From a virus (lineage: Duplodnaviria > Caudoviricetes): a DNA stretch of 52,391 nt. The stretch is taken from the IMG/VR virus record IMGVR_UViG_3300028559_000054, positions 1 to 52,391 of that record, one strand, 5' to 3'. Numbering within the stretch: position 1 is the first letter of the stretch; every line of letters begins with the position of its first letter. The notes below the pieces were generated by a model. That model was not told the origin of the DNA, searched no databases, and saw nothing but the letters and a program-made list of their open reading frames with translations. The position numbers and the translations under genes are program-made. Shown here piece after piece: positions 9,001 to 49,557 of the stretch.

Positions 9001-12000
9001 CAGGCACTTATATGAATTCTCAAGAATCTATTGGTATGACCAATGTAATGAAAATATTAAGTCGAAGCATGCGAACCACAGATATCCAAATGAAAGACCT
9101 AACTACATCTGCAAGTAGCTCAAGTAAAGAAATAAAAAGTATTGGAGAGCCAGCAAAAAATATGAAAAGTGCTTTAGAAGGTTTTAGAGAAAAATCTGTA
9201 TATGCTTCTTTTGCAATATCATTAATTGGAGGTTTTGCCAATCAATTAGTCGGAGATAATAAAGCTTTGTCAAATAATATAAATGAATTAAGTCAAGGCA
9301 TGGGGACAGCATTAACTGCTGTTGGATTAATTCCTGGACCAATTGGGTTAGTCGCTGGCGGCGCCGCAGCTTTATATTCTGCTACAGCATTTTTAGCTAA
9401 GACTTTTAGAGATAACGGAGAACAAATAGGTAAAAATTTAGAAAAAATTAAAGAAGAAACGGCTAAATTTGCTTCTAGTACTCAAAAATATACAGACACA
9501 TTACAAAAATTAAACGAAGCATATTCTGATCCAAAATCTTCACTGGATACAATAGTTAAATTAAACAAAGAACTATATTCTTCAGCAAAAGATTTGCCAA
9601 ATGAATATAGAGCATATTTATTATCAATTACTGATGGTAAAAAATTACAAGAAGAAATAAATAGAATCCAAGCAGAAAAAAATAAAAAAGAAAGAGTCAC
9701 AGATTTTGCAAATAAAGCAAATGAATTACTTGGGGCTGGAACATTTGGGTATGGTGATATCTTTAAATCTGGAGGATTTAGCCCGGGGACAGCAGCTAAA
9801 GAATTTTTAAATTCATTAGAAGATGCAGATAAAGCTATTGAAAAAATAAATGTATCTTTATTAGATGTAAAGAAGCCAGAATTAATATCTTACTTAAAAG
9901 ATTTGGGCCTTAAAAATGAAGATTTGATGTCGATCTATAACAGAATGGGAGACCAAAATGTAAGTAAATTTGTCACAGCTTTATTCTTATCCGCGAACGA
10001 AGCCAAGAATACAGCTAAACAAATAGAAGCAATCTCTCCAGTTAGAGATGCGGAAATGAAAAAAATATTAGAAACAGAAAAAGCTGCATCTAGAGCAAGG
10101 GTAGCTTTAGATGGTTTGAATAATAATTTAGAAAATTTAATTGATAACGCTATAAAATCTGAAACATTCAGACAAAATTTTAAAGATCAAAATTCCGCAA
10201 ATACTAGAGACACTAAATTAAATCGAGCTGACAATTTAGTAGGACTTTATGAAAATTCTGCTTCGGGAGAGTCCTTAAATCAAGTTAGATCGCAAATATC
10301 TAAATTACAAAGAAATGAAGATTTATATAAAAACGTAAGAAATATACAAGCTTCATCAAAACAATCAATGTTTGAAGATGTAAGATCTTTTGCTAAAGAA
10401 TTAAATCAATCAAAAGAAGGCGATAATCAAGCATTAAGTAATGAACAATTAAAAAGTTTTAATGACAGATTATTAGAAATTTCTAGACAAAACTTAACGC
10501 CTAGCGAAACTCAAGGAGCTTTATCAAAAGAAATTGGTAATTTAGGAGGATCCTCAGATAAAACTTTACAAATACAGCAAAAATTAGCAGATTCAACAAG
10601 GTCTCAAAACCAACAAATTGGTACATTATCTGAAGAAGCCAAAAAAGCTAATATCATTGCTGCGGATAATTTAAATATTCAACAAAGAATACTCCAAATT
10701 AGAAGAGATACATCAACCGCAGGTGGTATTCAAGGATTTTTAGATCAAGGATCTTTTCAAAAAAGTAAAGAGTCATTTGACCAATATTCTAATATGTATA
10801 AATCTCCAGGCAAAGTATCCAGTGGGCGAGGTGCAGCTGGATTATTATCTGAAATAGTTCAATTTGCTGGAGGAAGTGTTAACGAAAAATTATTAGGAAG
10901 TCTTGGGCCATTAAAAGAACGAGCTATAAGCGGCAGATCACAAGACATAAAAAACCAAGCTAATTATTTTGCTAGAAAAAGTCCTGGATCTGGTAAGGTT
11001 TATAGAGACATTGCATCAAGGTCAAGAGAAATTGCTACAACTCAAATAGAGTCCTTGATTAAAGACCAAAATATTGGACAAAATGTAGATGAAATCACTA
11101 CTATATTGAAAGATATACAAAAAGAGCAAGCAACATTTACAACCGATTTAAATAATACTATAAACAGCGCAATTCAATCTATTGGGGATACTCTTGCCAG
11201 TAGCATAGACTCTTTGAAATCAATCATAGAAGGCGCTAGTGCTAAAAGCATTTTAGCTCAAGAACAAGTTGATGCGCAAAAAAATAAATCACAAGCTATA
11301 ATTTCTCAAGCTGGTGCAAAAAATGGTGTTAAAACGGCCAATGAACAAATAGGATTATTAGCGCCAAAAATACAAGAAAAAATTGATCCAATGATGGATT
11401 TTAAAAACAAAGGAATATTTGAAAGTCCAAGAGCTTTTGAACAACGCCGCGCAGGTTTACAAGACATATTAAAATCAATATCTGGCTCAAAACCAGTTTC
11501 TAATGAAAGTCTAAAAAGAGCAAATATTCAAGGCTCAGACCCAGTAAAACAATTAATAGATCAATATAATGAACAAGTTACGACCTTAGAAGTTTCTAAA
11601 TCAGCTATTGAGAACGCAACAAGTTCAATAAAAATTTTTGAATCTCAACTTCAATCTTTAAATGGGAAAATAACAGAAGTAAATAAAAATTTAGATAACA
11701 AAGCAAATACCAATGGATATAAACCTTTGCCTGCTAATGTCGCTGCTGCTCAAGCTAAACTTTTTAATAGTACTCCAGAGAAAATAGAGGCTGAAAGAAA
11801 AAGATATTACACACCTGCAATTGACCAAACCATGCAGCAAGACCCAGCTCAAAGACAAAAACTTTTAGAGTATTGGAAGAATTATAATCCACAAAATAAA
11901 AACAATAGTCTGAATAAGGTCGATGTTGGAGGAAAAGTGCAAATAGAAAAACCAGAAACACCTTTGGATCTAACAGTCAACGGCTCAATTTCTATAAATG

Positions 12001-12185
12001 AACCAACTTTTACAGTTAAAATAGATCCTAATTCAGATTTAAGTTCTGCAGTCACTCCAGTTATAGAACAATGGCTATCTCAAACTCAAGGCACATTAAA
12101 TGAAAAATTTAATAATGATATTAGAAAATTACAAGAAGATATTACTTCATTAGGAGGACAAAGAAAAGCTCCTGCTTTATTTTAA
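6069..12185 (+). CDS. tail tape measure protein
   Basis: 2038 aa; N-terminal TP901-type core (AEFSRQG, GNSFKTIFTRL), Ala/Ser/Lys-rich helical composition, hydrophobic segments, position after the tube gene. Confidence 0.93.
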   Translation: MAQGGDNIIIDVLGNTKPLEKDIARVANQALTLNTKGFSQPLGKITGQLGEFEKSLAASNARVIAFGASAGAIFAVQKAFSETIKSVIQVEKALTDINVILNVSEKSLSQFGSKLFDIAKNTGLSFSEVAKSAAEFSRQGLSLEDTLKRTSDALILTRLSGLDTVSSVEALTAAINSFSSSALNSTEIVNKLAAVDASFAVSSADLAESIKRVGSSASDVGVSFDQLIALVTSAQQVTSRGGSVIGNSFKTIFTRLQRPSTLDALEQIGVATKDQEGNILPLIQILNQLAKQYDTLGSVQKAQIAETVGGVFQINILKATLGDLSKEYSIYSRALGISGGATDEANRRNEALNQTLSATLNKTLVNLQSTSTEIGNLAFAPALEKALGGLNAILENFGTKDSENIGAKIGQGLSTGLGNFLSGPGLLLGAASLIKIFERLTVFTADAFKQITGLNTQSVEQKTLQTQILNLIGSNPQIIEQINKGNLNTTSLHQQILSLIEQETIAMQKQLAVASSLSQTLMASGVRVPATGPMKGAAVKTKAFGFIPNLSNNQEVMGAILGGYDPGDVRKKSIPDYGTVTYNSAEKIKKFPGMKQPAIMPPASSSAGEMYKRNFEAAHGFNPYANSGFVPNFKSKVEQQYGFRNLLKDDYIQLAGAEAKIAKLERNKSLQNDRTIVEQRGEVFIKKDKKNIITSQLRTTERDAAEKRGKKEGGMTRSKSVLVYPDLEGGKGFQGGGRAKDGTFYKFPIFPFPGGNEQIPDLLYDNVSTSLVGVAKDYISGITSRPNLVKSDLFESYVRSNLSRSAVEASTGQVFESAIKASINRVNTSEIDNMDLDGPEIKAIASRFKGAKGLSSFQDGDFKNSLSKGNLDSFADKLLYKDNKRKTSKFNGFIPNFSPVSKALKTENKMGGKGVLDFEPGLGLYVRDQKTQPNFNAVKKDHPEGIASAVSNSFALQKGASALGFVPNFSSNPFSATTGTYMNSQESIGMTNVMKILSRSMRTTDIQMKDLTTSASSSSKEIKSIGEPAKNMKSALEGFREKSVYASFAISLIGGFANQLVGDNKALSNNINELSQGMGTALTAVGLIPGPIGLVAGGAAALYSATAFLAKTFRDNGEQIGKNLEKIKEETAKFASSTQKYTDTLQKLNEAYSDPKSSLDTIVKLNKELYSSAKDLPNEYRAYLLSITDGKKLQEEINRIQAEKNKKERVTDFANKANELLGAGTFGYGDIFKSGGFSPGTAAKEFLNSLEDADKAIEKINVSLLDVKKPELISYLKDLGLKNEDLMSIYNRMGDQNVSKFVTALFLSANEAKNTAKQIEAISPVRDAEMKKILETEKAASRARVALDGLNNNLENLIDNAIKSETFRQNFKDQNSANTRDTKLNRADNLVGLYENSASGESLNQVRSQISKLQRNEDLYKNVRNIQASSKQSMFEDVRSFAKELNQSKEGDNQALSNEQLKSFNDRLLEISRQNLTPSETQGALSKEIGNLGGSSDKTLQIQQKLADSTRSQNQQIGTLSEEAKKANIIAADNLNIQQRILQIRRDTSTAGGIQGFLDQGSFQKSKESFDQYSNMYKSPGKVSSGRGAAGLLSEIVQFAGGSVNEKLLGSLGPLKERAISGRSQDIKNQANYFARKSPGSGKVYRDIASRSREIATTQIESLIKDQNIGQNVDEITTILKDIQKEQATFTTDLNNTINSAIQSIGDTLASSIDSLKSIIEGASAKSILAQEQVDAQKNKSQAIISQAGAKNGVKTANEQIGLLAPKIQEKIDPMMDFKNKGIFESPRAFEQRRAGLQDILKSISGSKPVSNESLKRANIQGSDPVKQLIDQYNEQVTTLEVSKSAIENATSSIKIFESQLQSLNGKITEVNKNLDNKANTNGYKPLPANVAAAQAKLFNSTPEKIEAERKRYYTPAIDQTMQQDPAQRQKLLEYWKNYNPQNKNNSLNKVDVGGKVQIEKPETPLDLTVNGSISINEPTFTVKIDPNSDLSSAVTPVIEQWLSQTQGTLNEKFNNDIRKLQEDITSLGGQRKAPALF

Positions 12186-12196
12186 AGAAATAATTT

Positions 12197-13834
12197 ATGG
12201 CTTATACATTTTCAGACGCGACTCTATTAACTTATGAGATGGCCAATAATTTTTTAGGAGAGGGATTATTTTCTTTAAATAGTAAAAAAAATATATCTAT
12301 TCGTGGCATCTTAGACAATAGATACAGTAATTTAGACTCAGATGGGATAAAAGAATCTATTGATAAGATAAAAACTATAACTGATAGTACGTTCGGAGTC
12401 TATGATGATATTGTTGTAAATGGAATTAATTTAGGAAAAGGTAATATAATAAATGTATCTTTTCCAAAAAATAACCCAATTAGAATAGGCGAATACGTTT
12501 ATACGATAGAAGTAACGAATAATTCAGATTTCTCTAATTCTCCAACAGGCTCTATTTATGGAAATTATATAACTGGCGTAACGGGCGTTATTTCTAATTT
12601 TGATGAAAACTTTAGATTTCAATATGAAAATGATGGTAGATACAATTATAGCCATGAAGTAAATTTAAGATTTTTTGATGATAATTCAGATGTAATTACA
12701 AAGTCTAAAAGTTTAGCAGAGAATCTTTTTAATGATAACATTTCTATTGGATTAATAGGTCCTTATTCTGGGATTTATAAAGATTTAAGAAATAAGAATA
12801 ACTATTTTAGAGAAACCTACAACCTAATAGATAAATCTTGTTCTTTTTCTAAAAATATTACAATAGACACAAAAAATAATAATAACTATACAAATCAAGT
12901 TTCACATAATATAACATTTGATACAAATGGAAAAATTACAGTAAAAGAAGATGGGTTGATAACTGCTTTAGATAATACTTTGAATTTCACTGCAGAAAAT
13001 TATTTCAATGATGCTGTATCTAATTCATATAATAGGTGCCAAAATTTATTAAATACCTATAGCCAAAAATATAGTTTAGGTACATCAGATAATTTATATG
13101 CAAAACCATTTGATTTAGGCAAAACTATTAATATTTTCGATAACTCTTTGAGCTACAATATATCTTACGTAAACGATATGGCTTTTGAAGGCAATTTAAT
13201 AAATCAATATAGCATAAATATTTCTCAAGATAACCGTGGTTTTCAAACCTATACGGAGAATGGTGAAATTACAAAAGCTGGTCAACTTGGTACGATATCA
13301 AATTTAAGTGATATTAAGACCAAATATCAAGAAGCCCAAAGCAGAGCATCTTCAGCTTATCCGACTTTTAAATATACTAATAACTCATTAAGTTTTGATT
13401 TAGTTAATAACTATTATGATAATGTTTTTAATTATTCTTTAGAAAAAACAAACGATAATTCAATTTTAGAAAACGACCCATATTATAAAAGCTTAGAAGT
13501 AAAAATAGAAGATCAATTGCCTTTTGATACAACGAAAGAATATATTATCCCAAATAAAATTCCAAAAAATATCTTATTTTTATATGGAAATAACGTAGAA
13601 ATTGGTGAGAGAAATATCACAATAAATGGGGTATTAAATAGACCAAATTCTAATATATGGAATTCTCCAGCATCTTTTCCAGTTGAAAATTTAAAAAGTT
13701 TAGCAATTGAAAGAGGCTTAAATTCAGTAAGCACAGAGTCTTTTATAGATAATATAAATTATAATTATGGTTCTGATTATAATTTTACATTTAATGTTGG
13801 TATTAAATATTTAAAAGCGAGTGGGAGTGCCTAA
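12197..13834 (+). CDS. tail tip/distal tail-like protein
   Basis: 545 aa beta-rich ORF directly after the TMP. Confidence 0.5.
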   Translation: MAYTFSDATLLTYEMANNFLGEGLFSLNSKKNISIRGILDNRYSNLDSDGIKESIDKIKTITDSTFGVYDDIVVNGINLGKGNIINVSFPKNNPIRIGEYVYTIEVTNNSDFSNSPTGSIYGNYITGVTGVISNFDENFRFQYENDGRYNYSHEVNLRFFDDNSDVITKSKSLAENLFNDNISIGLIGPYSGIYKDLRNKNNYFRETYNLIDKSCSFSKNITIDTKNNNNYTNQVSHNITFDTNGKITVKEDGLITALDNTLNFTAENYFNDAVSNSYNRCQNLLNTYSQKYSLGTSDNLYAKPFDLGKTINIFDNSLSYNISYVNDMAFEGNLINQYSINISQDNRGFQTYTENGEITKAGQLGTISNLSDIKTKYQEAQSRASSAYPTFKYTNNSLSFDLVNNYYDNVFNYSLEKTNDNSILENDPYYKSLEVKIEDQLPFDTTKEYIIPNKIPKNILFLYGNNVEIGERNITINGVLNRPNSNIWNSPASFPVENLKSLAIERGLNSVSTESFIDNINYNYGSDYNFTFNVGIKYLKASGSA

Positions 13835-15894
13835 TGAATATCATAAGATATAATAATCAAAATATTCCGTACCCAACTCCATTTGTTACATTAAATCAAG
13901 GAAATACATCTTTCAATAGGAATTGGGGAAAAGATACAACTATAAATCTAGAAGGTAAATTAACTGGAGATTATGAAAATATAAGAAAATCTCAAAGCGG
14001 ATTGTTGGATATATTTAATCAAAATTTTGGCAATTTTGAAATATATGAAGCAACAGGTAGTACTGGATTTAGTTTTGATTTCACATCTGTTCGCACATTC
14101 TCAACAACGGGATATTATAGTGGTCTAAGTGGAGTATATATGCCTAAAAATTCTAATTTAATACTTCGAATAGATGGAAACTATGCAGGATTTCCAATGC
14201 TTTGGCAAAGATCTAAAGATAAAATAAATTGGACAAATTTTACTTTATATAAAACTAATTATTATTCAGGTTTTGCTATTCCTTATATTCCTTTTGATTC
14301 AATTCGCTTATATCCTCAATCTTCTCCATATATAAATTATCCAGTAAATAGCTTGACATACCATACCGAGTTGGGAGACCAAAATAATCCAAATATAAAT
14401 CGTCGAGGAATTTATACTGGAAATATTGATGACAATAATTACATTAGATTAATGATAACTGGACCAGGTGGAGCAGATGCAACTCAGCCACGAGCTAATT
14501 TAATTGCAAGTGGCTTTGATGCAGAAAAAATTTATGAAAAAAGTGGAATTATAATTAAATCTATAAATTTTAATGAATCTCCATACTTTGGAGTATTAGA
14601 TTATAATATTGAATTAAATTCATTAGAGTTTAGTGGTAATGTCACAGATCCTAAAAATGAATTTTCTTTTACTGAAAATAAAGATAAAAGCGTAACATTA
14701 AATCACTCTATTTCAGCAAGGGGATTGAACACAAATACAAATTCTTATAAATCAAACGCTTTACAAAACGCTATAGATTTCGTTAAAACTTATACAGGTT
14801 TAAATAATATACCCACGCTTAAATTTATTTCTGGAGTAAATTCAAGAAATTTTTATTTACAAAATTTTTCTGAATCTATTGATCGTTTAAATGGAACATA
14901 TTCTATTGAAGAAGAATACCAAGCTTCTCTTTTAAATACAGGGCTATCTGGTAATTTAAGTTATACAATTAATATCGATTCTGGCGTAAGTTCAAATTTT
15001 TTACAGATAAATATAAGAGGAGGTTATAAAGGTGCTCATAATGGAGACATCAATCAACTTAGAAATTCTTTAAATATTACAAGTTTAATAACTGGTAGTT
15101 ATAGCGGTTATTTTAACCCTACCCCTTTGCAATATAACATATCTGAAAATACTGGAGAAAATTCAATAAGCTTCGATTATTCTTTTGATAATATTGATTT
15201 ACCAAATCCATATTTTAAATATTCTACTTCTGTTTCAAGAAATGCTCTAGAGCAGGTTTGTAATGTCCAAGTCCAAGGCGAAATGATCGCCAGAGGGAAT
15301 CTCAAATATAGATCTTCATTAATAAATTCTAATATATCTAATTTAACTAATTCATTCTTATCTATAGCCACTGGCGCTTTGAGTGGGTTTAAAGATCTTA
15401 ATAATTTGACTATAAATAGTCCTTTAAGATTCAAAAATATGACTATAAATAAGAATATAAATGAAGGTAAACTAACTGCTACTGCAGATTATGATGATAA
15501 ATACATGCCAGCTGGATATTTTCTTGATAGCGCATATTCTGTGTCTATTGAAGCTCCTTATTGGTATATGAACAATGTTCCTACCTGTAATGTATATGGC
15601 CGTCATATAATTAATGATTTTGATATTACAACTTTACCCAAATTAAATATGAATGTTAATGCAAAAATGAATATAGACTCTGCGGTTAGCGAAACAACTG
15701 CAAAGATTGATATTAAAAATATAACTAAAAATATTATACCCACGGTTTATGATTTCAATGTAAAATTGAAAGAAAATGAAAATGTAACAAAAAAATATTA
15801 TAATCTAAATAGCGTTTCCGAGATATCATACAACTTGAACAAAGTAGCTACAAAGAATGAAAATGGCTTATTGCCAAAATTTAATTCCCTATAA
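13834..15894 (+). CDS. tail tip protein, probable paralog of the preceding gene
   Basis: 686 aa, beta-rich, motif order shared with 12197-13834. Confidence 0.5.
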   Translation: MNIIRYNNQNIPYPTPFVTLNQGNTSFNRNWGKDTTINLEGKLTGDYENIRKSQSGLLDIFNQNFGNFEIYEATGSTGFSFDFTSVRTFSTTGYYSGLSGVYMPKNSNLILRIDGNYAGFPMLWQRSKDKINWTNFTLYKTNYYSGFAIPYIPFDSIRLYPQSSPYINYPVNSLTYHTELGDQNNPNINRRGIYTGNIDDNNYIRLMITGPGGADATQPRANLIASGFDAEKIYEKSGIIIKSINFNESPYFGVLDYNIELNSLEFSGNVTDPKNEFSFTENKDKSVTLNHSISARGLNTNTNSYKSNALQNAIDFVKTYTGLNNIPTLKFISGVNSRNFYLQNFSESIDRLNGTYSIEEEYQASLLNTGLSGNLSYTINIDSGVSSNFLQINIRGGYKGAHNGDINQLRNSLNITSLITGSYSGYFNPTPLQYNISENTGENSISFDYSFDNIDLPNPYFKYSTSVSRNALEQVCNVQVQGEMIARGNLKYRSSLINSNISNLTNSFLSIATGALSGFKDLNNLTINSPLRFKNMTINKNINEGKLTATADYDDKYMPAGYFLDSAYSVSIEAPYWYMNNVPTCNVYGRHIINDFDITTLPKLNMNVNAKMNIDSAVSETTAKIDIKNITKNIIPTVYDFNVKLKENENVTKKYYNLNSVSEISYNLNKVATKNENGLLPKFNSL

Positions 15895-15896
15895 TT

Positions 15897-17705
15897 ATGA
15901 AAAAAGATTTTATTTTTAATTATTTAGCTGAAAGTTATAAGGATACTGGTATATTAAGTATATATTATGATTTTAGTGGTGCTTCTGGGTTATTTGTTCC
16001 AAATAATTTATATCCAATCAATACCCAGTTTGGTAAGATTAATTCTAATTATTTTATCAACAGTGAAAATTCTCCAGGAGTATTTATTTCTTGCTACAAC
16101 CAGCAGTCTTATACTGGCTCTGGTATATTTCAAGGCCAAAATAATTTAAAAGTATTAAATAATTTAAGTGGAAGCAACATGACTTTATTTTATAATTTTG
16201 GAAATATATCTTGCGACAAAAATTTTACTATAAGTTCTCAACAGTACCAAATTCCAACTGGTTATACTCAAGTTTTAAGTTATTTAGAGTCAAAACCAAA
16301 TTCTTCTAATCCATTTGAAATAACTCTTGGTTTAAATGATTTAAATAAATTAATTTTAGAGTTTTCTGGTGGAAAAGAATCTTATAGATCTATTAATTTT
16401 GTTGAGCTTGGTTTTCAAAATATAGTTTCTATGAGATTAAATGATAATTATATTGAATATACGTACTTTGATGTGATAGAAGACGAAATAAATAACAAAT
16501 CAATTTCATTTACGGGTGATTATTTTAAACAAGAAAAAAATATTTATATTGGTAATTTGCCTACAGAAAAATATAAAAATGGTTATACTGGGTATTTTGG
16601 CCTTGTAGATGGGTTTACTGCTTATAATCAATATATTGATGAATCTTCATGTTCTGAATTAGCTAGATTATTTTTAAAAACTGGTGATCAATTTCAACAA
16701 ATAAATCTGACTGGAATAACATACAATATAATTCAAAGTGGATTTCTAAATCCTACTGGTGTTTTAGGTACTGGAATTACTGGTTATCAATTAATTCCGT
16801 CCAATGAAATTATAAATGCCGCTTGTGGTGATAATTGTATTGTTTACTTAAGATCTGGTATTACTGGAATAATTACTGGAGAAAAGATTGAATATAAAAT
16901 CATAAGCCAACAGCAGCAATCTAATAATCAAAGTACGATTAAATATAACCTTTATGATCAAGAATATGCTGGTAGATTTACAAAAAATAATATTGTATTT
17001 AATACAAAATTAGATTCTGATGACATTTTTGAAATTCAATTATATAAAGATGTAGATACAAAAATTGAAACTCCAAATTATGCAAATGCTTCAAATATTT
17101 ATATTACAAATGATATGCTCGCAGATAGAAATTTATTAATATTTTTTAATGGTCAAAATATAAACTCTGGACATTATGAATTGCTTAATAACAATACTAA
17201 TTTTCGTATATACCAATCTAGTGATAATATCAATGATGTAGTTTTATATACTATCTCAAATTTTTCTGAGATTGATACTTTTATATTTAATAATACTGGT
17301 GAGAATCCAAATTCCAATTCCCTCAAGTACGTTGGTAAATTAAATAACAATTTATATGATGTATTTTTAAATGGTCAAAAATTGATAAGTGGGCTTAATT
17401 ATACTGTATCTGGACTAAATTCAAATACTGGGTTATATTTAAGAGAGAATTTACCTTCTGGAGAAGTATATGCTATAAAAGATAATTTCTTTTATAAAGC
17501 TACTGGAAATAATTTAAAATATTATTCACCATATGGAATAAACTATAATAATGAAAGAATATGGGTTAATGGGCTTTATCAAAATAAAAATGAAAATTAT
17601 CTATTGACTTCATGCTTTAATAAGTCGCTTTTAACTAATGAAGAGCTAAAAACTAAGAATAATTCGATATTCTCAGGAGATAATTATCGGTTTAATTTAG
17701 TGTAA
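15897..17705 (+). CDS. tail/baseplate structural protein
   Basis: 602 aa; LamG-like segment (IYIG...GYFGLVDGFTAYN) and repeated [FW][FLV]NG motifs common in virion proteins. Confidence 0.5.
   Translation: MKKDFIFNYLAESYKDTGILSIYYDFSGASGLFVPNNLYPINTQFGKINSNYFINSENSPGVFISCYNQQSYTGSGIFQGQNNLKVLNNLSGSNMTLFYNFGNISCDKNFTISSQQYQIPTGYTQVLSYLESKPNSSNPFEITLGLNDLNKLILEFSGGKESYRSINFVELGFQNIVSMRLNDNYIEYTYFDVIEDEINNKSISFTGDYFKQEKNIYIGNLPTEKYKNGYTGYFGLVDGFTAYNQYIDESSCSELARLFLKTGDQFQQINLTGITYNIIQSGFLNPTGVLGTGITGYQLIPSNEIINAACGDNCIVYLRSGITGIITGEKIEYKIISQQQQSNNQSTIKYNLYDQEYAGRFTKNNIVFNTKLDSDDIFEIQLYKDVDTKIETPNYANASNIYITNDMLADRNLLIFFNGQNINSGHYELLNNNTNFRIYQSSDNINDVVLYTISNFSEIDTFIFNNTGENPNSNSLKYVGKLNNNLYDVFLNGQKLISGLNYTVSGLNSNTGLYLRENLPSGEVYAIKDNFFYKATGNNLKYYSPYGINYNNERIWVNGLYQNKNENYLLTSCFNKSLLTNEELKTKNNSIFSGDNYRFNLV
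17700..17705 (+). promoter_or_regulatory. GTGTAA putative late-promoter motif
   Basis: formed by the last codons (GTG TAA) of the upstream gene, 20 nt before ATG 17726. Confidence 0.45.
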
Positions 17706-17725
17706 ATATACTCAAGGAATAAGGT

Positions 17726-19990
17726 ATGCCCGTTAAATCTATTAATAAGATTAAAATTGGAAATTATCCGCAAGGTCAATTTGCTGGCGGATACATTTAT
17801 TCTTTTCAAGTGAGTCAAGGTTTTGCTGAGTCTGTTAATGAATTAAAAATAGACATTGTGTATGATAAAAATTTTCCAATTAATATGCCAGAAAAAAACT
17901 TAACTAATTCATATAGAATTGAAATTGGCAATATAATCATTCCTTACGCATATTTAATTAAATTTTCTAAAAGTATTTCTGCCACAGAAAATATTATATC
18001 ATGTACTTTTATTGATAATTCATTTATTTTAGATAGATATTACATAGGCTTAACTAATAGGCATAAAGCAGTAGCTCGTACTCCTGTAAATTTTCCTGTA
18101 AATGTTTATTGTCAAACGACTGATTTAGTTGGAAATGTTAATATAAATCCAACTCAAGGGTCAGTTAAGAGATTTGCAGCTTCTTCTCCTTTGACTGGTG
18201 GAGATGGAACAGGTGGACTAATTATTTTAGGAAAAGAAAAATTTACAGAACAAGCTTGCGATGTTCCTGATGTAGAATATTTATTTTCTGATTTATGGAC
18301 TGTACTTAATAATATAAAATTAAATGGCAAAGCGGTACTTGATTCATCATCTGATCATCCAGATTCAACAGATCCAAATACATATACTGGAACTTTAAGA
18401 GAAGTTTTATCCAGTTGGGGAAGTGATTTAGGTTTTTCTTTCTATTGGGATTTTTTACTAAATACATTAGTTGTTATTGATTTAAGATCTGCAATAGATA
18501 TCTCTCCAGTACAAAATTTTATTGAAAGTAATTTTAATTCAAGCTCAAATTTAAATATAACAAATTATTCTCAAGAAGAATCTTTAGAGGGTACTTATTT
18601 TCAAGCTGGAGTGAATTATGCTTTAAAACCTTCTAGATCAAAAGACAAGCCTATAAAAGAGTTTTTGCCAATGGATTATTCTTGTGTCACATTACAACAA
18701 GCAAATATTACAGCAAATACTATAACTTCTGTTTTAGCTAAGTACAATCGACAAGCTTGGTCATTGTATAATCTACAAGTAGGAAATTTTTCAAGAGTAG
18801 GATTTTTTAAAAAATATAATGGCATTCCATCATATTTATTAGAGACCTGTTTTAGTAATGTTAATGAATTTTTAACTAGTGAAGGTGGAAGCGCTAGTTT
18901 ATGGTTTGGTTATTATGATGAAAATATTGGAAATGCGAATGCTGATCTTGAAGCTAGAAATTGCGATGATATTGGAAGATATTATATAAATGGTACAATT
19001 TATAATTTAAAAGAGCTAACATGCAAAGACAACTATATATTTCAATATGTTACAAGTTTTGAACCTCAACCAATTTGGTCTAGACCTTTTGCTTCTGCTG
19101 GTGGTAATTACATACCTCCTTTGCCAAATAAAACTTGGTATATAGAACGTAATCCAGCTTGGAATGAGCAAGGCGAAGTGGATCTTCAAAATTTAGGACC
19201 AATTATTACTCTGATTGATGGTGATCTTGCAGACCAAGTAAGAGATACGATTATATTAAATGATCCTAATAACATAAATCCAGATAGATATAGAGGATTA
19301 ACGATGCTTTGCTGGAAGCCTTATTTAAGTGTGGGCGGTGGTTCGGCGTATAATGAAGCAGAAGAGGAATGGATTCCAGCTCAATTTAGTCAAGAAGACC
19401 AAGCATGTAAAACTCAATGTGATAGAAATTTAGTAGAAGAAGTGTGTGCTAAAGTAAATGGGGGACGGACTTTAAATACTCCAGCACATGGATTAGTTTC
19501 AAAACTTGCAGGTATTGTTACTATGACAAATTTAATAAATCGCACATCAAAAACTGTTAATTTACCGTCTCAACAACCATATATGGGATATCTAATTAAT
19601 GAAGGAAGTTTCCAATGGGTAGAAGAAGGCTCTGTATCGGTCGAGGGTGGCGCTCCTCCTCCTAATAATGTAATGTCTTACAATGTTGCAGCAAACGACG
19701 TAACAGAACCAATACCTTCTGCTGGACAAGTTGTAGCTAAAAATCCAGATCCAGCTTTAACTGTCTCTCAAACTAATGAGAAAAAACAAATATCTCTAAA
19801 AGTTATTGGAGCAGAATATGGTGAATTAGGGAATTTCTTAAGTCCAGATTATGGATTAACAAATTTTAATATTTATATCAATGATAATGGTATATTTACA
19901 GATTTAACTTTTGAAAATCGACCAGATCGGCCCAAAGGTAATGGAACAATGCGTACAGTAGGTCCACATAAAATGAAATTTACATACTAA
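17726..19990 (+). CDS. putative baseplate hub/tail tip protein
   Basis: 754 aa; YTGTLREVLSSWGSDLGFSFYWD resembles hub (Tal/gp27-like) proteins. Confidence 0.5.
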   Translation: MPVKSINKIKIGNYPQGQFAGGYIYSFQVSQGFAESVNELKIDIVYDKNFPINMPEKNLTNSYRIEIGNIIIPYAYLIKFSKSISATENIISCTFIDNSFILDRYYIGLTNRHKAVARTPVNFPVNVYCQTTDLVGNVNINPTQGSVKRFAASSPLTGGDGTGGLIILGKEKFTEQACDVPDVEYLFSDLWTVLNNIKLNGKAVLDSSSDHPDSTDPNTYTGTLREVLSSWGSDLGFSFYWDFLLNTLVVIDLRSAIDISPVQNFIESNFNSSSNLNITNYSQEESLEGTYFQAGVNYALKPSRSKDKPIKEFLPMDYSCVTLQQANITANTITSVLAKYNRQAWSLYNLQVGNFSRVGFFKKYNGIPSYLLETCFSNVNEFLTSEGGSASLWFGYYDENIGNANADLEARNCDDIGRYYINGTIYNLKELTCKDNYIFQYVTSFEPQPIWSRPFASAGGNYIPPLPNKTWYIERNPAWNEQGEVDLQNLGPIITLIDGDLADQVRDTIILNDPNNINPDRYRGLTMLCWKPYLSVGGGSAYNEAEEEWIPAQFSQEDQACKTQCDRNLVEEVCAKVNGGRTLNTPAHGLVSKLAGIVTMTNLINRTSKTVNLPSQQPYMGYLINEGSFQWVEEGSVSVEGGAPPPNNVMSYNVAANDVTEPIPSAGQVVAKNPDPALTVSQTNEKKQISLKVIGAEYGELGNFLSPDYGLTNFNIYINDNGIFTDLTFENRPDRPKGNGTMRTVGPHKMKFTY

Positions 19991-19991
19991 A

Positions 19992-22700
19992 ATGAAAATC
20001 AGTGGAAATAATTTTTTATCTATCAATACCCAAACTGGAATTAGTTTTAATTTAGATTTATCTATAGATAATTTAATTGGAAATTGTAATTTTGGATTTA
20101 CTGGTACAAATGAAAATTTAACATTTAAGTTAAATAAAGGAAATATAATTGATCCAAACAATAGAAATGTATATCTCTATAACTCTAATGAGCAAATAAA
20201 TATATCTGGAAATATAAATGAAAATTTATATTCATACTATATTAATAATAAACCATGCGTTTTAAATGGGCCAGCAAATTTATACGATATAAGTGGTTTT
20301 TATTTAAATACAAATAGCTGCTCTGCTGACTTTAATTTAAGCTTATATGGTGATCTTCCAAATTATGGAGTAGATTTTAATAATACTTTTTATATTACTG
20401 GAGATAATCCATTGATTGGAATTATTTCTAATTCTGGAAATTCTACTTTTAAAATTTTTAGCGGGGTTATCACCGCACCTACAGGATTTTCTATTAACAA
20501 ATTTATCTTAAATGGTACTCCAGAGAATAATTCTGTAGAAATAAACAATACTACATTTGGGCAAATAAGTATAAGCCATTTTAATCAAACATTTTATCAG
20601 GTTGAGAATAGCAAGTTATATAATATTCAATTAGATTTATATACTAATTTTGGTAAGATATCAAAAACAATTCCAATTACAGGAGTTTTTTCTGGTTACA
20701 TAACTGTAAATTTAAACGCTTTTGATATAATTTATCCAACTCCTGGAAGCTTAATAGGAAATGAAGATGAAACTAATATTCTATTGAATACTAAAATTGT
20801 AACAGGAGATAAATTTAGTGAAGTCGAACTAGATAAAATTGTAAATATAAAATTAGAATATTCTGGAGGTAAAACTGGCGCATTTTATGCTAACATCCCA
20901 GGAAGCGGTTATAAATCTATAAATGTTACTGGATTCTTAAATGGAAGTGGATATTTAGGCGAAACAGATTTAAGATTAACAGGGTATAATTTACAATCTG
21001 GTATTCAAATAACTGGTTATATGACTGGTGTGCCAAGTGAGCAATTTTTTATTACTGGATTTATCTCTAATAATGTTAATATTCTAAGCACTGGGTATTT
21101 TTTTGATATACCATTTGTAGAAAATAAAAATTATAATATAACAGGCTTTGCTAATAATGGTCTAATAAATTATAATAATTATTTAAATTCATCTTTTATT
21201 CAAAAAAAGCAAACAATAGAAAATTATACATCTCCTACAAGTCAATTTGGTGTCAAAATAAAATCAAATGAATCTGGGTCAATAGTTCTTGTAAACGCTC
21301 AAAATGAAGTTAATGCAAATTTTTCTACTGGAAGAGTTTATCTTTATACTGGAAATCAAGGAAATTTAACTTTAGCAAAAACTTATTCTGGGTTAGCGGG
21401 AGATATAAATTTTGGAGGTGATATTTATATAAATAAAACTGGTAATTGTTTTCTTATATCTTGTAATAGATTTGGAAATCAAGGATATAGTGGAAGAGTT
21501 TATCTTTTTGAAAACTATAATCAAAATATAAACACTGCAAGAATAATTCAAGAATCTGGATTATATTTTGCAAGATCTATAGCAATTAATACTGGAAATA
21601 TTATTTTTATAAATAATTTTAATGGAATAAATGATACTGGGGTTATTAATATATACGAAAATAATGGACCATCTTTTGTTAAAAGACAAATGTTAAGTGG
21701 CTACTCTAAAATTAATTATTTTGGATACGATTTAGATACAATTGACGATGGGCAATTACTAATCGTATCTGATGTTTTAGCTAGTAATGCTTCTGGAGAA
21801 ACATATGTTTTTACAGGTAATAATTATAATTATTCTTTACTCAACAAATTAGATAAAAGTGAAATATCAAATATTCGTTTCTTTGGAAATTCTTTAAGTC
21901 TAAATAAAAATGGAAATATTCTAGTGGTTGGAGCTCCACAATCTAATTTTGGTAGTGGAGCTTTTTTTATATATACTGGAGATCGTAACAATAACTTTAA
22001 ACAAGTATTTGCTTCTGGATTTCGTGGACCAGGTGACGCTCAATTGGGGAGTCATTTAAAATTAAATGACGAAGGAAATACTTTAATTGCTGGTCTACCT
22101 CTCAAAGATTCTGCAACTGGTGAGATTCGTATAATAACTGGATCCAATAATATTTGGGATACTACTAATATTATTAATCAAAATACATTAAATACAGCTG
22201 TTGCGATTTTAGGTTTGACAGTTAATCTATCGACTTTAAGTGGAAAAAATACATACTATGCTGGAAATTTTATTTATCAAAGACTTCATACATTTAGTGA
22301 TATTAATTTCTCTGGATATGCTAATTATTTTCCTGCAACAGGTTTGATAAATAAAACTTCTAATTATCTAATAACTGGATTAATTACAGGCAATAAATAC
22401 AATAAAACTTTCTTAAATACTTTTAATATATTAACTGGTTATTATTTGCCTTCTAGTGGGGTATATACTGGATTTATTGATTTCAAACAAGCAGACTATA
22501 CAGCTTTTGACCCTAGTTTATATTCAAATCTTGGCAACATATTGATAAAAACTGGTATTAATAATTTATATTTAAAAGTAAAAACAAAAAATTACTATGA
22601 TGATGAACCTATGACAGGCAAACTAACAATAACTGTCTCAACTATTAATGGTTCAAATTCAGGTGTAGTTAACTATTATATAACAGGAAAAAAGGTATAA
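19992..22700 (+). CDS. tail protein with FG-GAP-like beta-propeller
   Basis: 902 aa; repeated FG...G.VY[LI][YF] blades (e.g. FFGNSLSLNKNGNILVVGAP) at about 21240-22290. Confidence 0.65.
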   Translation: MKISGNNFLSINTQTGISFNLDLSIDNLIGNCNFGFTGTNENLTFKLNKGNIIDPNNRNVYLYNSNEQINISGNINENLYSYYINNKPCVLNGPANLYDISGFYLNTNSCSADFNLSLYGDLPNYGVDFNNTFYITGDNPLIGIISNSGNSTFKIFSGVITAPTGFSINKFILNGTPENNSVEINNTTFGQISISHFNQTFYQVENSKLYNIQLDLYTNFGKISKTIPITGVFSGYITVNLNAFDIIYPTPGSLIGNEDETNILLNTKIVTGDKFSEVELDKIVNIKLEYSGGKTGAFYANIPGSGYKSINVTGFLNGSGYLGETDLRLTGYNLQSGIQITGYMTGVPSEQFFITGFISNNVNILSTGYFFDIPFVENKNYNITGFANNGLINYNNYLNSSFIQKKQTIENYTSPTSQFGVKIKSNESGSIVLVNAQNEVNANFSTGRVYLYTGNQGNLTLAKTYSGLAGDINFGGDIYINKTGNCFLISCNRFGNQGYSGRVYLFENYNQNINTARIIQESGLYFARSIAINTGNIIFINNFNGINDTGVINIYENNGPSFVKRQMLSGYSKINYFGYDLDTIDDGQLLIVSDVLASNASGETYVFTGNNYNYSLLNKLDKSEISNIRFFGNSLSLNKNGNILVVGAPQSNFGSGAFFIYTGDRNNNFKQVFASGFRGPGDAQLGSHLKLNDEGNTLIAGLPLKDSATGEIRIITGSNNIWDTTNIINQNTLNTAVAILGLTVNLSTLSGKNTYYAGNFIYQRLHTFSDINFSGYANYFPATGLINKTSNYLITGLITGNKYNKTFLNTFNILTGYYLPSSGVYTGFIDFKQADYTAFDPSLYSNLGNILIKTGINNLYLKVKTKNYYDDEPMTGKLTITVSTINGSNSGVVNYYITGKKV

Positions 22701-22704
22701 ATTT

Positions 22705-25700
22705 ATGGGCGATATTAGACCTCCAGTTGGTGATCCTTTGTTAAAAGCTGGATGCATAAATCCATACAATAGGCAGTTAGCATTTGGTACGTCTCCTTAC
22801 TATCGACTATATTGTCCAAACGCTATAGGGGTAAATTCATTCCTTAATCAAACTAATACTTCTCCATATTTTGTATCCTATATGGACAATACTAGTATGA
22901 ATTACTATCCAATAGCTTATCCTGATTATATGGCTAGTTTTAAATACTATGCAGATAGTATGAGTTTATATGTTAATAGTTATCAACATAGAATTGATTT
23001 AAGTTCTAATGACGCTTATTCATATATTTCTACTAGCAGAAAATATAGTAATATATCTGCAGAATTGGCTTCAGATGCTTATGGTGGTCAACTTTATATA
23101 CAATCATCTAATTCAAATACACATATTGCTTTAGATACAAATTCTACTAATGTTAACATGGAATTAAGTAACGGTAATTATTCTATTCAAAATATTATAT
23201 CTAATAGTAACGCTTATAGTTATATGACCAATGGATCAAATAAAGGTGTCTCCATAAATCTTGCAGATCTTGGCAGCGATTCAAATGATATAAAATTTAG
23301 AAATTGTGGTACTGCTGGTAGTCCATTATGGATTTTAACTAATAAAACTTTTGCTACGGGTGCTGGAGGTAATGTTTGCTGGGGAACATATGGTGGAACG
23401 ACATTACAGATAGGAAATAATGATTGTCCAGTTCAAGTAGTGCAAATGCTTGGAACAGAAAATGGCGCAGAAGGAATATTTCTTGAGAAAACTAATACTG
23501 CTGGTAGCATTAAGATTGGTGATAACACTAGTGCAGTAGTTCAAACTTTTTGCCAAACGAATTCTAATATTCAAGCAAACCTTACTAACACATCAGCTAC
23601 CGCAAAATTTGAAGCTAGTACAGCAGCTGATAAATATGCTTTAGGCTCAGCAAATTCTAATGGTGGATACTTTGAAGCTCTTGCTGGATCAAAACAAATT
23701 CTTTTGAGCGCAAATACTTTAAGCGCAAATCAAGCATTAACGCTAAAAAATTGGGATCCTAATCGAGTTGGCGGATTGTATGTTGCTTCAACTGAAGTAA
23801 TCGATTTATCAACTGTAACTGGTAAAAATTGTTGGAGTACTTATGCTGGATCAACATTAACTTTAGGAAATGCTACTTGTCCAGTGCAAACTGTGCAAAT
23901 GCTTGGAACAGAAAATGGCGCAGAAGGAATATTTCTTGAGAAAACTAATACTGCTGGTAGCATTAAGATTGGTGATAACACTAGTGCAGTAGTTCAAACT
24001 TTTTGCCAAACGAATTCTAATATTCAAGCAAACCTTACTAACACATCAGCTACCGCAAAATTTGAAGCTAGTACAGCAGCTGATAAATATGCTTTAGGCT
24101 CAGCAAATTCTAATGGTGGATACTTTGAAGCTCTTGCTGGATCAAAACAAATTCTTTTGAGCGCAAATACTTTAAGCGCAAATCAAGCATTAACGCTAAA
24201 AAATTGGGATCCTAATCGAGTTGGCGGATTGTATGTTGCTTCAACTGAAGTAATCGATTTATCAACTGTAACTGGTAAAAATTGTTGGAGTACTTATGCT
24301 GGATCAACATTAACTTTAGGAAATGCTACTTGTCCAGTGCAAACTGTGCAAATGCTTGGAACAGAAAATGGCGCAGAAGGAATATTTCTTGAGAAAACTA
24401 ATAGCGCTTCTACAATAAAACTTTTGGATAGTACATTCTCATCTTTGGAAGCTATATCAAATTTAAATAATGTTGTTAAAGCTGGTATATATAACAATAC
24501 AACAAGTGCATTCATAAAAACTCAAGGTACAACTACTAATCTATTTTCTCAAATGTATACTGATAGTTCCTCCGCTCTTGTATACGCTCAAGGGGCAGCT
24601 GCAGTATTATCAAGATTAGGCGCAACTAGCACAACTTCTGATTTACAAGTTTACAACAGTTTTGGTGGAGCTTATGGTGCTGCTAATGTAGCAAATGCTT
24701 ATCTTAGAGTACAAAATGCTGCTGATACAAGATCTAACGAAATGGTTGTAAACGCTACAACAGCCTATTCTAAAGTTATTGGTGGCACAAGTACAATATT
24801 TTCTCAAATGTATACTGATAGTTCCTCCGCTCTTGTATACGCTCAAGGGGCAGCTGCAGTATTATCAAGATTAGGCGCAACTAGCACAACTTCTGATTTA
24901 CAAGTTTACAATGCTTTTGGTGGAATTTATGCTGCTACTGAAGCATCAAACGCTTACCTTACAGTTCAAAATGCTTCTGCTACAAAATATGTAAGTTTAA
25001 GTCTTGGTGATATTTCGACTGCAAGTTATGATATTCGTTTTCGTAATTGGGGAACTACTCTTGCACCAATCTGGGCTTTATCAAATTCTGCAACTTTGCC
25101 ATTTGCTCCTTGGGCAATATATAATGATACTACTGATTTTCTAACGATTGGTAATACAAATTATCCTGTTCTTACAATGTGGCAATCATATGATGGAACA
25201 TCAAACAATGGCACATATCTTACAACTCAACAAGATCGTTCAGAAGTTTATGTGCTTAAAAATGATACTTATGGATGTACTATACGAGCTGAACCAGCAC
25301 TTGCCTTCATAAAAACTCAAGGTGCAACTGATACTAGATTTTCTCAAATGTATACTGATAGTTCCTCCGCTCTTGTATACGCTCAAGGGGCAGCTGCAGT
25401 ATTATCAAGATTAGGCGCAACTAGCACAACTTCTGATTTACAAGTTTACAACAGTTTTGGTGGAGCTTATGGTGCTGCTAATGTAGCAAATGCTTATCTT
25501 AGAGTACAAAATGCTGCTGATACAAGATCTAACGAAATGGTTGTAAACGCTACAACAGCCTATTCTAAAGTTATTGGTGGCACAAGTACAATATTTTCTC
25601 AAATGTATACTGATAGTTCCTCCGCTCTTGTATACGCTCAAGGGGCAGCTGCAGTATTATCAAGATTAGGCGCAACTAGCACAACTTCTGATTTACAAGT

Positions 25701-25911
25701 TTACAATGCTTTTGGTGGAATTTATGCTGCTACTGAAGCATCAAACGCTTACCTTAGAGTCCAAAAAGTTGATAATTCAAAAGCAATTAGCTTGAGTATA
25801 ACTGATTTTGGAACAACAGCAGCAACGACAGTACGATTAAGAGAATTTTCTATTTGTGTAAATGGAGAAACTAAAAAATGTTTGATACTCGCAAGTGAGT
25901 ATTATACTTAA
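22705..25911 (+). CDS. tail fibre/receptor-binding protein with internal repeats
   Basis: 1068 aa, A/S/T/N-rich beta repeats, last gene of the tail module, exact internal duplications. Confidence 0.7.
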   Translation: MGDIRPPVGDPLLKAGCINPYNRQLAFGTSPYYRLYCPNAIGVNSFLNQTNTSPYFVSYMDNTSMNYYPIAYPDYMASFKYYADSMSLYVNSYQHRIDLSSNDAYSYISTSRKYSNISAELASDAYGGQLYIQSSNSNTHIALDTNSTNVNMELSNGNYSIQNIISNSNAYSYMTNGSNKGVSINLADLGSDSNDIKFRNCGTAGSPLWILTNKTFATGAGGNVCWGTYGGTTLQIGNNDCPVQVVQMLGTENGAEGIFLEKTNTAGSIKIGDNTSAVVQTFCQTNSNIQANLTNTSATAKFEASTAADKYALGSANSNGGYFEALAGSKQILLSANTLSANQALTLKNWDPNRVGGLYVASTEVIDLSTVTGKNCWSTYAGSTLTLGNATCPVQTVQMLGTENGAEGIFLEKTNTAGSIKIGDNTSAVVQTFCQTNSNIQANLTNTSATAKFEASTAADKYALGSANSNGGYFEALAGSKQILLSANTLSANQALTLKNWDPNRVGGLYVASTEVIDLSTVTGKNCWSTYAGSTLTLGNATCPVQTVQMLGTENGAEGIFLEKTNSASTIKLLDSTFSSLEAISNLNNVVKAGIYNNTTSAFIKTQGTTTNLFSQMYTDSSSALVYAQGAAAVLSRLGATSTTSDLQVYNSFGGAYGAANVANAYLRVQNAADTRSNEMVVNATTAYSKVIGGTSTIFSQMYTDSSSALVYAQGAAAVLSRLGATSTTSDLQVYNAFGGIYAATEASNAYLTVQNASATKYVSLSLGDISTASYDIRFRNWGTTLAPIWALSNSATLPFAPWAIYNDTTDFLTIGNTNYPVLTMWQSYDGTSNNGTYLTTQQDRSEVYVLKNDTYGCTIRAEPALAFIKTQGATDTRFSQMYTDSSSALVYAQGAAAVLSRLGATSTTSDLQVYNSFGGAYGAANVANAYLRVQNAADTRSNEMVVNATTAYSKVIGGTSTIFSQMYTDSSSALVYAQGAAAVLSRLGATSTTSDLQVYNAFGGIYAATEASNAYLRVQKVDNSKAISLSITDFGTTAATTVRLREFSICVNGETKKCLILASEYYT
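23440..24403 (+). repeat. tandem repeat, 453-bp period (about 2.1 copies)
   Basis: GTGCAAATGCTTGGAACAGAA starts at 23440, 23893 and 24346; copies look identical. Confidence 0.95.
24543..25756 (+). repeat. 419-bp direct repeat (24543-24961 = 25338-25756), each copy with two ~110-bp subrepeats 255 bp apart
   Basis: TTTTCTCAAATGTATACTGATAG starts at 24544, 24799, 25339 and 25594. Confidence 0.95.
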
Positions 25912-26883: not shown

Positions 26884-26912
26884 ATCTTAGTCTATTTTAG
26901 ATATTTAGTCAA
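26884..26912 (-). promoter_or_regulatory. sigma70-type promoter
   Basis: TTGACT-17-TAAGAT, 6 nt before the ATG. Confidence 0.7.
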
Positions 26913-28050: not shown

Positions 28051-28053
28051 AAA

Positions 28054-30522: not shown

Positions 30523-30551
30523 ATGATATTAGTTATTTATTATAATGTCAA
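30523..30551 (-). promoter_or_regulatory. sigma70-type promoter
   Basis: TTGACA-17-TATCAT, 7 nt before the ATG. Confidence 0.8.
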
Positions 30552-33136: not shown

Positions 33137-33353
33137 TTTCGTCTTCCTCTTGCTCTTTTGAAATTTTATCTATTTCTTCGTTAAAAACATGTAAGCCTTT
33201 TGCCAATATTTTCATGGAGGCTTTGTCTTTTAAACTGTAAAATACATCGGCTTTACCTTGTTTCTTGCCTTTCTCTACGGTTATAAGAAGATATTCTATA
33301 TCATAGTCTTCTAACTTTTGTATAGTATCATAAATATTGTCTAATGAGCCCAT
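33126..33353 (-). CDS. small acidic hypothetical protein
   Basis: 75 aa, between the exonuclease and polymerase genes. Confidence 0.65.
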   Translation of the reverse strand: MGSLDNIYDTIQKLEDYDIEYLLITVEKGKKQGKADVFYSLKDKASMKILAKGLHVFNEEIDKISKEQEEDENED

Positions 33354-33354
33354 T

Positions 33355-41704: not shown

Positions 41705-41733
41705 ATGATATCTAAATAATATGTTTTAGTCAA
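41705..41733 (-). promoter_or_regulatory. sigma70-type promoter
   Basis: TTGACT-17-TATCAT, 6 nt before ATG 41698. Confidence 0.8.
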
Positions 41734-43942: not shown

Positions 43943-43947
43943 TCTAT

Positions 43948-43976
43948 ATGATATATGATCTAAAGGTAGAATTCAA
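43948..43976 (-). promoter_or_regulatory. sigma70-type promoter
   Basis: TTGAAT-17-TATCAT, 5 nt before the ATG. Confidence 0.65.
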
Positions 43977-43988
43977 TTATTTTAAAAT

Positions 43989-45520: not shown

Positions 45521-45532
45521 TTTGTTTTATTA

Positions 45533-46228: not shown

Positions 46229-46242
46229 GTCTTTTGTTTTTA

Positions 46243-48370: not shown

Positions 48371-48375
48371 ATATT

Positions 48376-49556: not shown

Positions 49557-49557
49557 A

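Follow-up and report, generated by a model that had tools for sequence, protein, structure and literature searches.

Three tail proteins encoded in IMGVR_UViG_3300028559_000054, a viral record (Caudoviricetes) from IMG/VR whose entire 52,391 bases (G+C ~29%) form the window analysed here, carry serine or threonine directly before glycine far more often than their own composition predicts. This [S/T]G excess is real, strong and unusual. What does it stand for? With a probability of roughly 45%, we read it as mainly an inherited structural habit of modular all-beta outer tail proteins, built from LamG jelly rolls, an FG-GAP propeller and beta-meanders. We hold this reading only slightly above the one put forward in the original prediction, a model's note made from the sequence of the window, according to which [S/T]G is the acceptor motif for glycans added by phage-encoded enzymes.

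The excess was expressed as z, comparing observed [S/T]G pairs with shuffles of each protein's own residues, for 42 open reading frames (ORFs) of the window. Ser or Thr precedes 23 of 46 glycines in a tail/baseplate protein of 686 amino acids (aa; positions 13834–15894, plus strand), with 7.9 expected (z 6.2), 27 of 46 in the adjacent 602-aa tail protein (15897–17705, plus strand; 6.8 expected, z 8.4), and 53 of 94 in an all-beta tail protein of 902 aa (19992–22700, plus strand; 15.4 expected, z 10.9). Between the latter two lies an internal control, an unbiased 754-aa protein putatively labelled a hub in the original prediction (17726–19990, plus strand), which has the motif at 3 of 57 glycines (z -2.0). 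The tape measure protein (TMP; 6069–12185, plus strand; PF10145 at E 3.4e-33, phrog_4211 at E 4.5e-50) is likewise unbiased, with 19 of 155 glycines in the motif (z -1.3), and a repeat-built, fibre-like protein of 1068 aa (22705–25911, plus strand) is depleted, with 3 of 84 and zero Ser-Gly, at a z of -4.2 that is inflated by the long internal repeats of its gene. The hand counts of the original prediction for the three rich proteins and for the 754-aa protein were reproduced exactly, and its observation that the TMP and the fibre lack the bias was borne out. For the remaining 35 of the 42 ORFs, z runs from -1.2 to +2.9, and the 28 minus-strand ORFs together hold 48 [S/T]G pairs against ~44 expected.

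At least 12 different codon pairs (hexamers) spell the motif in each of the three proteins, so the signal acts at the protein level and is not due to a DNA word, a codon-pair preference or base composition. Base composition had already been set aside in the earlier note, rightly: the within-protein shuffles, at z 6 to 11, reject both base and amino-acid composition as a cause. Paralogy of the three biased proteins was rejected as well, BLASTP finding no similarity among them below E 0.6. Collagen-like triplets occur in other genes of relatives and not in these three, from which triplet periodicity is absent, and were discarded as an explanation. Taking the three proteins together, the motif residue is Thr 57 times and Ser 46 times, in a loosely hydrophobic-[S/T]-G-hydrophobic context. 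Asn makes up 14–15% of their residues, and [N/D]G is depleted about two-fold (observed counts 4, 5 and 9, expected 8.8, 8.7 and 17.4), standing at expectation in the 754-aa protein (8 against 8.3) and in the fibre (10 against 10.6).

The bias is a family trait, conserved in position, and not a quirk of one phage. All 38 of 38 homologues of the 902-aa protein have 44–68% of their glycines in the motif (z 7 to 15); the median motif share is 55% among 59 homologues of the 602-aa protein and 48% among 56 of the 686-aa protein, and the bias persists in relatives at 23–31% identity. An alignment of 29 sequences of the 902 family, on average 44% identical to the query, retains the [S/T]G pair in 74% of cells; the motif Gly is kept in 87% as compared to 59% for other glycines. 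The tail module proved syntenic in 11, later 36, viral-contig loci from a clade of 100–200 kb phages with 29–48% G+C. In the syntenic loci analysed, it is the same genes that carry the bias, with hub and tape measure always free of it; orthologues of the 754-aa protein range from z -3 to +2. A complete 172-kb relative has 7 of 122 ORFs above z 3.5, namely the three orthologues, two other large structural proteins, one tiny ORF and one probable wrong-frame or antisense reading of a collagen-like repeat. That the excess might be a general trait of beta-rich tail proteins was rejected on 20 structural proteins of phage T4, whose motif share is 10–28% (z -1.7 to +2.0). A tblastn search of 50,697 deposited phage records with the 902-aa protein returned zero matches, so no cultured relative was found, and a full-text search of the literature brought up no paper describing [S/T]G as a motif or sequon of phage tail proteins.

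At 154762–160374, the 172-kb relative (G002, loci L012–L021) encodes a fibre of 1870 aa in which a unit of ~30 residues, with several S-G and T-G pairs in it, is repeated; the fibre also has a BNR-like propeller stretch. In locus L006 (15239–16588), and also in L007 and L008, long (Gly-Ala-Thr)n runs characterise a collagen-like tail protein, and a second glycine-rich protein follows it. Thr-rich collagen repeats could be glycan carriers themselves, as in BclA of Bacillus.

What kind of proteins carry the bias? Pfam (at E <= 0.01) and PHROG searches with the tail proteins that follow the tape measure in the window gave zero matches, and folds were modelled with AlphaFold2 on family alignments. 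The 902-aa model (predicted local distance difference test, pLDDT, 79.5) comprises an N-terminal beta domain, a beta-meander (residues 283–395), an FG-GAP beta-propeller (~440–745) and a C-terminal beta domain. From N- to C-terminus these have 12 of 24, 12 of 17, 17 of 38 and 12 of 15 glycines in the motif, all four being rich in it. The family profile matches integrin alpha-M chains over positions 462–707 (E 4.7e-12), Foldseek places the model with integrin headpieces (E 5.6e-12; block pLDDT in the propeller part mostly 77–94), and many homologues have a precomputed PF14312 assignment, the window protein alone being without a Pfam match at E <= 0.01. The 602-aa model (pLDDT 79.0, predicted template modelling score 0.74; the motif-dense stretch 270–345 is poorly modelled) shows predicted LamG/ConA-like jelly-roll domains: Foldseek hits in the PDB are laminin LG, the PilC lectin module and domain 4, a carbohydrate-binding module, of a GH43 (glycoside hydrolase family 43) protein, at E 9e-8 to 3e-6 and template modelling scores by target of up to 0.66, and those in BFVD are ConA-like/LamG phage virion proteins. 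Atlas features indicate Laminin_G_3 at 0.94; a sequence match to that family was not obtained, the 602-aa protein having zero Pfam families at E <= 0.01.

The 686-aa protein is conserved over its N-terminal two thirds, and its relatives have swapped domains at the C-terminus; Pfam domains precomputed for the relatives are FG-GAP_2, PA14, GLEYA and P_proprotein. Across the 602 and 686 families, conserved N-terminal parts are combined with exchanged C-terminal FG-GAP_2, RCC1, LRR_5, PA14, GLEYA or P_proprotein domains, which, judged by domain content, looks like the swapping of receptor-binding modules. By their predicted folds, the three biased proteins are probably peripheral, sugar-binding proteins of the tail tip.

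Within these folds, the motif has a characteristic place. According to DSSP on the AlphaFold2 models, 18 of the 53 motif Ser/Thr residues in the 902-aa protein lie in loops, 16 at strand edges and 19 in the middle of strands; in the 602-aa protein, 12 of 27 are in loops. The motif Gly is mid-strand in 14 of 53 cases in the 902-aa protein, compared with 3 of 41 for its other glycines. The original prediction expected the sites to be exposed on such models; what we looked at was secondary structure only, and by this measure the sites are, in the models, not mainly loop features. Conservation in the 902 family averages 0.95 for in-strand sites (12 of 14 at 0.9 or above) and 0.63 for loop sites. 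In the propeller, the same strand start holds the motif in six of six blades found by their pattern, and in four of these the strand end does too.

The substitutions tell a similar tale. In the 2,548 alignment cells in which the motif Gly is kept, the preceding residue is Ser or Thr in 89%; Ile, Val, Asn and Asp are rare, and the main alternative is Ala, mostly where blade strands of the propeller begin. Loss of the Gly turns the pair mainly into NN, NS, SN or SS. These are other turn-forming pairs, and a change from Gly to Asn marks a position with positive phi. The Gly of the motif is structural. As to the residue before it, the choice between Ser and Thr is fixed in 56% of conserved motif columns and in 54% of other conserved Ser/Thr columns.

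Together, this suggests a scheme in which glycine would be placed where the backbone wants a residue without a side chain, that is, at strand ends, at kinks in long strands and at blade turns, and the preceding Ser or Thr would bring a short side chain with a hydroxyl, suited to a beta-strand. Fixed early in the phage clade, the motif would have been kept since then by local packing. Such a structural habit takes the excess, the positional conservation of the sites, their place in the predicted secondary structure and their substitution pattern as found, and we infer in addition that hydrogen bonding and packing, not modification, select for the hydroxyl. It is supported by the fixed positions of the sites, the superior conservation of those within strands, the minority share in loops, the mid-strand glycines, the repetition from blade strand to blade strand, the pairs that replace the motif upon loss of Gly and a Ser/Thr fixation like that of ordinary columns. 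Further support comes from the 602-aa protein, where 7 of 27 sites hold mostly hydrophobic residues in unbiased homologues, from the relative G015 and from the cyanophage DSL-LC02, all described below.

Several observations weigh against this reading. The excess covers four different domain types within the 902-aa protein alone, the hydroxyl before the Gly is specific, and the T4 proteins offer nothing comparable. Moreover, not all members of the 602 family share the habit. A profile search through 1.84 billion representatives gathered 530 members at E <= 0.001, and among the best 150 of these, 130 were new homologues of at least 300 aa. The median motif share of this distant set is 0.51, yet z is below 3 in 10 of the 130 and the share below 0.30 in 9; in the protein P0250, the motif occurs at 2 of 41 glycines. 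The unbiased homologues are full-length and form a subclade. At the 27 sites of the window protein they have ordinary pairs such as KE, EE, YK and QV, the residue at the Ser/Thr position being mostly charged or amide at 7 sites, mostly hydrophobic at 7 and mixed at 13, figures that are approximate since the alignments are at ~25% identity.

A metagenome contig, L074, extends this to the entire syntenic module: its three orthologues are all unbiased (z 0.9, 0.7 and 1.2), and in the other loci analysed they are jointly biased. L074 stops 1.3 kb past its 902-like gene, before the expected place of a pair of genes for 641- and 381-aa proteins discussed below. Scans that used P0250, P0234, the hub of L074, or an alignment of hubs or of the subclade as query, along with a genome scan, found no longer contig of the unbiased lineage. 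Since full-length homologues can be unbiased and L074 is unbiased in all three proteins, the fold does not demand the motif; as far as these sequence comparisons go, the fold alone does not explain it. That the motif is present or absent in three mutually dissimilar proteins at once points to a shared cause outside them.

Could this cause be glycosylation? In its sharpened form, this explanation takes the Gly as structural and attributes the retention of the Ser or Thr in front of it to O-glycosylation by a phage enzyme, so that the outermost tail proteins would be coated with sugar. The window is certainly equipped with sugar genes. Three nucleotide-sugar enzymes, as counted in the original prediction, are encoded at 41726–44984 on the minus strand, namely UDP-galactopyranose mutase (Glf; PF03275 at E 3.7e-76, TIGR00031 above cut-off), GDP-mannose 4,6-dehydratase (Gmd; PF16363 at E 1.5e-101) and a GalE-like epimerase/reductase (PF01370 at E 8.6e-47). 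The rest of the sugar island (44981–52147, minus strand) includes a methyltransferase and two weak ones, a DUF5672 protein, a GT2-like (glycosyltransferase family 2) protein of 279 aa, a GT1 protein of 330 aa and several unassigned ORFs, with matches to phrog_21658 (E 6.1e-23), PF18922 (E 4.5e-21), phrog_13126 (E 2.1e-9) and PF00534 (E 2.2e-7). Of the "about 8" glycosyltransferase-like proteins initially proposed, only four have family evidence (the 381-, 641-, 279- and 330-aa proteins), the DUF5672 protein giving only a faint hint, and of the three methyltransferases one is firm.

The 641-aa glycosyltransferase (28054–29979, minus strand), a core gene of the clade, matches PF00534 at 32.9 bits (cut-off 26.4) and phrog_2170 at E 3e-13 over residues 10–437; its residues 536–590 resemble, below cut-off, the first 55 positions of heptosyltransferase II. 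The neighbouring 381-aa protein (26905–28050, minus strand) is like the C-terminal half of GT9 heptosyltransferases, matching PF01075 at 29.9 bits (cut-off 22) over profile positions 104–227 only and TIGR02195 positions 219–337 below cut-off. A sequence search of the PDB with the two proteins gave no useful direct relatives; heptosyltransferase II came up at E 0.06. Likeness to a GT9-type heptosyltransferase is thus divided between two adjacent genes (26905–29979, minus strand), an arrangement that is conserved in relatives. The pair adjoins the tail module on the opposite strand and recurs beside the tail genes in relatives' loci. In the 641-aa protein, a CxxC-x14-CxxC motif (C275, C278, C293 and C296), which 8 of 9 aligned sequences share, may bind a metal. 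On the glycan reading, the likeliest modifying enzyme would be this 641-aa protein, a candidate only, with its GT9-like neighbour, supplied by the island of Gmd, Glf and methyltransferase genes.

Does the bias track with such enzymes? A Gmd-type dehydratase is present in 14 of 14 relatives' records searched (4 of 4, 9 of 9 and 1 of 1), and a PF00534 match in a frame of 623–676 aa in 9 of 10, the miss being a 33%-complete fragment. These counts would fit the tracking with glycosyltransferases proposed in the original prediction. However, no relative without glycosyltransferases was found among the records searched, so the co-occurrence amounts to a single clade-level event, and G015 follows the pattern only in part: it retains a 641-like glycosyltransferase (61% identity) and Gmd, yet bias is absent from its 686-like protein (z 0.2) and weak in its 602-like one (z 2.2), with only the 902-like protein strongly biased. 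IMG/VR lists G015, the 88.8-kb record of locus L071, as a provirus, in contrast to the rest of the clade's records, which are linear or bear terminal repeats. As for sugar islands in general, the unrelated cyanophage DSL-LC02 has Gmd, fucose synthase, methyltransferase and glycosyltransferase genes side by side and a maximum z of 3.7 among 112 ORFs. A sugar island alone therefore does not bring the bias, and the idea that the [S/T]G excess generally accompanies phage sugar islands was rejected for this one case.

We regard glycan acceptance as a genuine but tentative contender. It would account for a motif that the fold does not require, for three dissimilar proteins that are biased or unbiased in concert within genomes, and for a hydroxyl kept in nearly nine of ten cells with Gly. 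The two-fold depletion of [N/D]G in the same proteins, the avoidance of the motif by the fibre and the 754-aa protein, and the ubiquity of Gmd fit as well, as does the 641-like gene, which stands at the end of the tail module in relatives and is 42–79% identical among them, far above the tail proteins. The 7 of 27 sites that are mostly charged or amide in unbiased homologues suggest surface positions. A precedent exists in the heptosyltransferase TibC, which modifies Ser-313 of TibA within an N-S-G-G stretch (PMC4358343). Against glycan acceptance speak, besides the single clade-level event and G015, that most sites lie outside loops and the in-strand ones are best conserved, that another 7 of the 27 sites look buried, that Ser versus Thr is no less fixed than in ordinary columns, and that the minus-strand ORFs of the window do not avoid the motif. 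TibC takes Ser and not Thr (PMC4358343), and here Thr is as common as Ser. With the dispensability of the motif for the fold and the kept hydroxyl on one side, and G015, DSL-LC02 and the minority share of loop sites on the other, the central claim of the original prediction stays undecided.

If true, the consequence would be a new phage O-glycosylation system, in which [S/T]-Gly at strand ends and turns serves as the acceptor code, a Cys4-finger glycosyltransferase acts with the GT9-like half-enzyme of the next gene, and the baseplate of a large uncultured clade of aquatic 100–200 kb phages is coated with a methylated deoxyhexose/galactofuranose glycan; we consider this conceivable and would sooner bet against it than on it.

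A further shared cause acting on the hydroxyl-Gly pair seems improbable to us. It might be a different modification, a common assembly chaperone, or the use of stable Ser/Thr-Gly in place of labile Asn-Gly and Asp-Gly turns in long-lived parts of the virion. Asn-Gly is prone to deamidation, and the depletion of [N/D]G in Asn-rich biased proteins would fit, as would their varying in concert; yet [N/D]G is not avoided in two other virion parts, the 754-aa protein and the fibre, and the analysis turned up neither a candidate chaperone nor a further modifying enzyme. An artefact of chance or composition, arising from low G+C, repeats or collagen-like triplets, is practically refuted by the shuffles, the many codon pairs, the lack of triplet periodicity and the conservation of sites in alignments, even if some TG-rich ORFs of relatives are trivial (the collagen-like (G-A-T)n protein and the probable wrong-frame or antisense ORF of such a repeat).

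The remainder of the window is that of a tailed phage with its own replication genes. The plus strand carries the tail module, with the tape measure gene followed by genes for proteins of 545, 686, 602, 754, 902 and 1068 aa. Three families of direct DNA repeats lie within the fibre-like gene (22705–25911), one of them consisting of four 300-nt copies that are 71–100% identical to the reference copy. On the minus strand, besides the sugar island, are genes for DnaE (in pieces), DnaB, a primase, a RecA-like protein and ThyX. The DnaE-type polymerase is split over minus-strand positions 30548–34740, with a PHP-domain gene (33994–34740), an RNase T-like exonuclease (33355–33993) and the polymerase core (30548–33136). 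Amid the replication genes sits a 2-oxoglutarate- and Fe(II)-dependent (2OG-Fe(II)) oxygenase (34842–35510, minus strand; PF13640, phrog_61).

What would follow from either answer? If the motif is only structural, as we tentatively favour, it would be a dipeptide habit of unusual strength, shared across the clade and set in folds of known types; it would mark this uncultured phage clade and warn against inferring sequons from composition. Should it prove a glycan acceptor, tailed phages other than mycobacteriophages would have their first sequon-like code for virion glycosylation, the large sugar-gene islands of aquatic phages would gain a role, and there would be consequences for host recognition and for the evasion of grazers or defences.

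How does this compare with systems already known? Small residues after an acceptor hydroxyl are familiar from eukaryotes, where Ser-Gly or (S/T)-G acceptors are used in glycosaminoglycan xylosylation and in O-GlcNAc modification of EGF domains, by unrelated enzymes of the secretory pathway. With LamG/ConA-like and FG-GAP tail or receptor-binding proteins of phages, the biased proteins share the jelly-roll lectin folds (602 aa), the integrin-type propeller (902 aa) and the C-terminal swaps. They differ from such folds in general in that the [S/T]G excess is not a property of the fold, as the unbiased homologues and the T4 tail proteins illustrate. In mycobacteriophages, phage glycosyltransferases decorate virion proteins, and the glycans, as PMC12619734 relates of the work of Freeman et al. 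2023, are at the C-termini of capsid and tail tube subunits. By that account, the candidate sites in the window differ in being spread through baseplate-type proteins, with an unbiased TMP.

The nearest working analogy to the putative modification is the TibC/AAH system, in which a GT9-fold enzyme O-heptosylates many Ser residues of the beta-rich surface protein TibA/AIDA-I (PMC4358343). TibC has a four-Cys iron finger, inserted in the catalytic domain, and modifies Ser but not Thr, and Ser-313 lies in the beta-rich passenger domain of TibA (PMC4358343). Loosely reminiscent of this arrangement, the window encodes, beside the tail genes, one protein with GT9 likeness and one glycosyltransferase in which a CxxC-x14-CxxC pattern is conserved. 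It departs from it in that Thr (57) is as frequent at the motif as Ser (46), and in candidate substrates that would be a LamG jelly roll, an FG-GAP propeller and a beta-meander rather than a beta-helix passenger. The GT9 likeness here is, moreover, weak and split over two genes, and a Pfam scan of the 28 minus-strand ORFs shows no heptose-pathway family; the donor, ADP-heptose in the TibC/AAH system, could be the host's.

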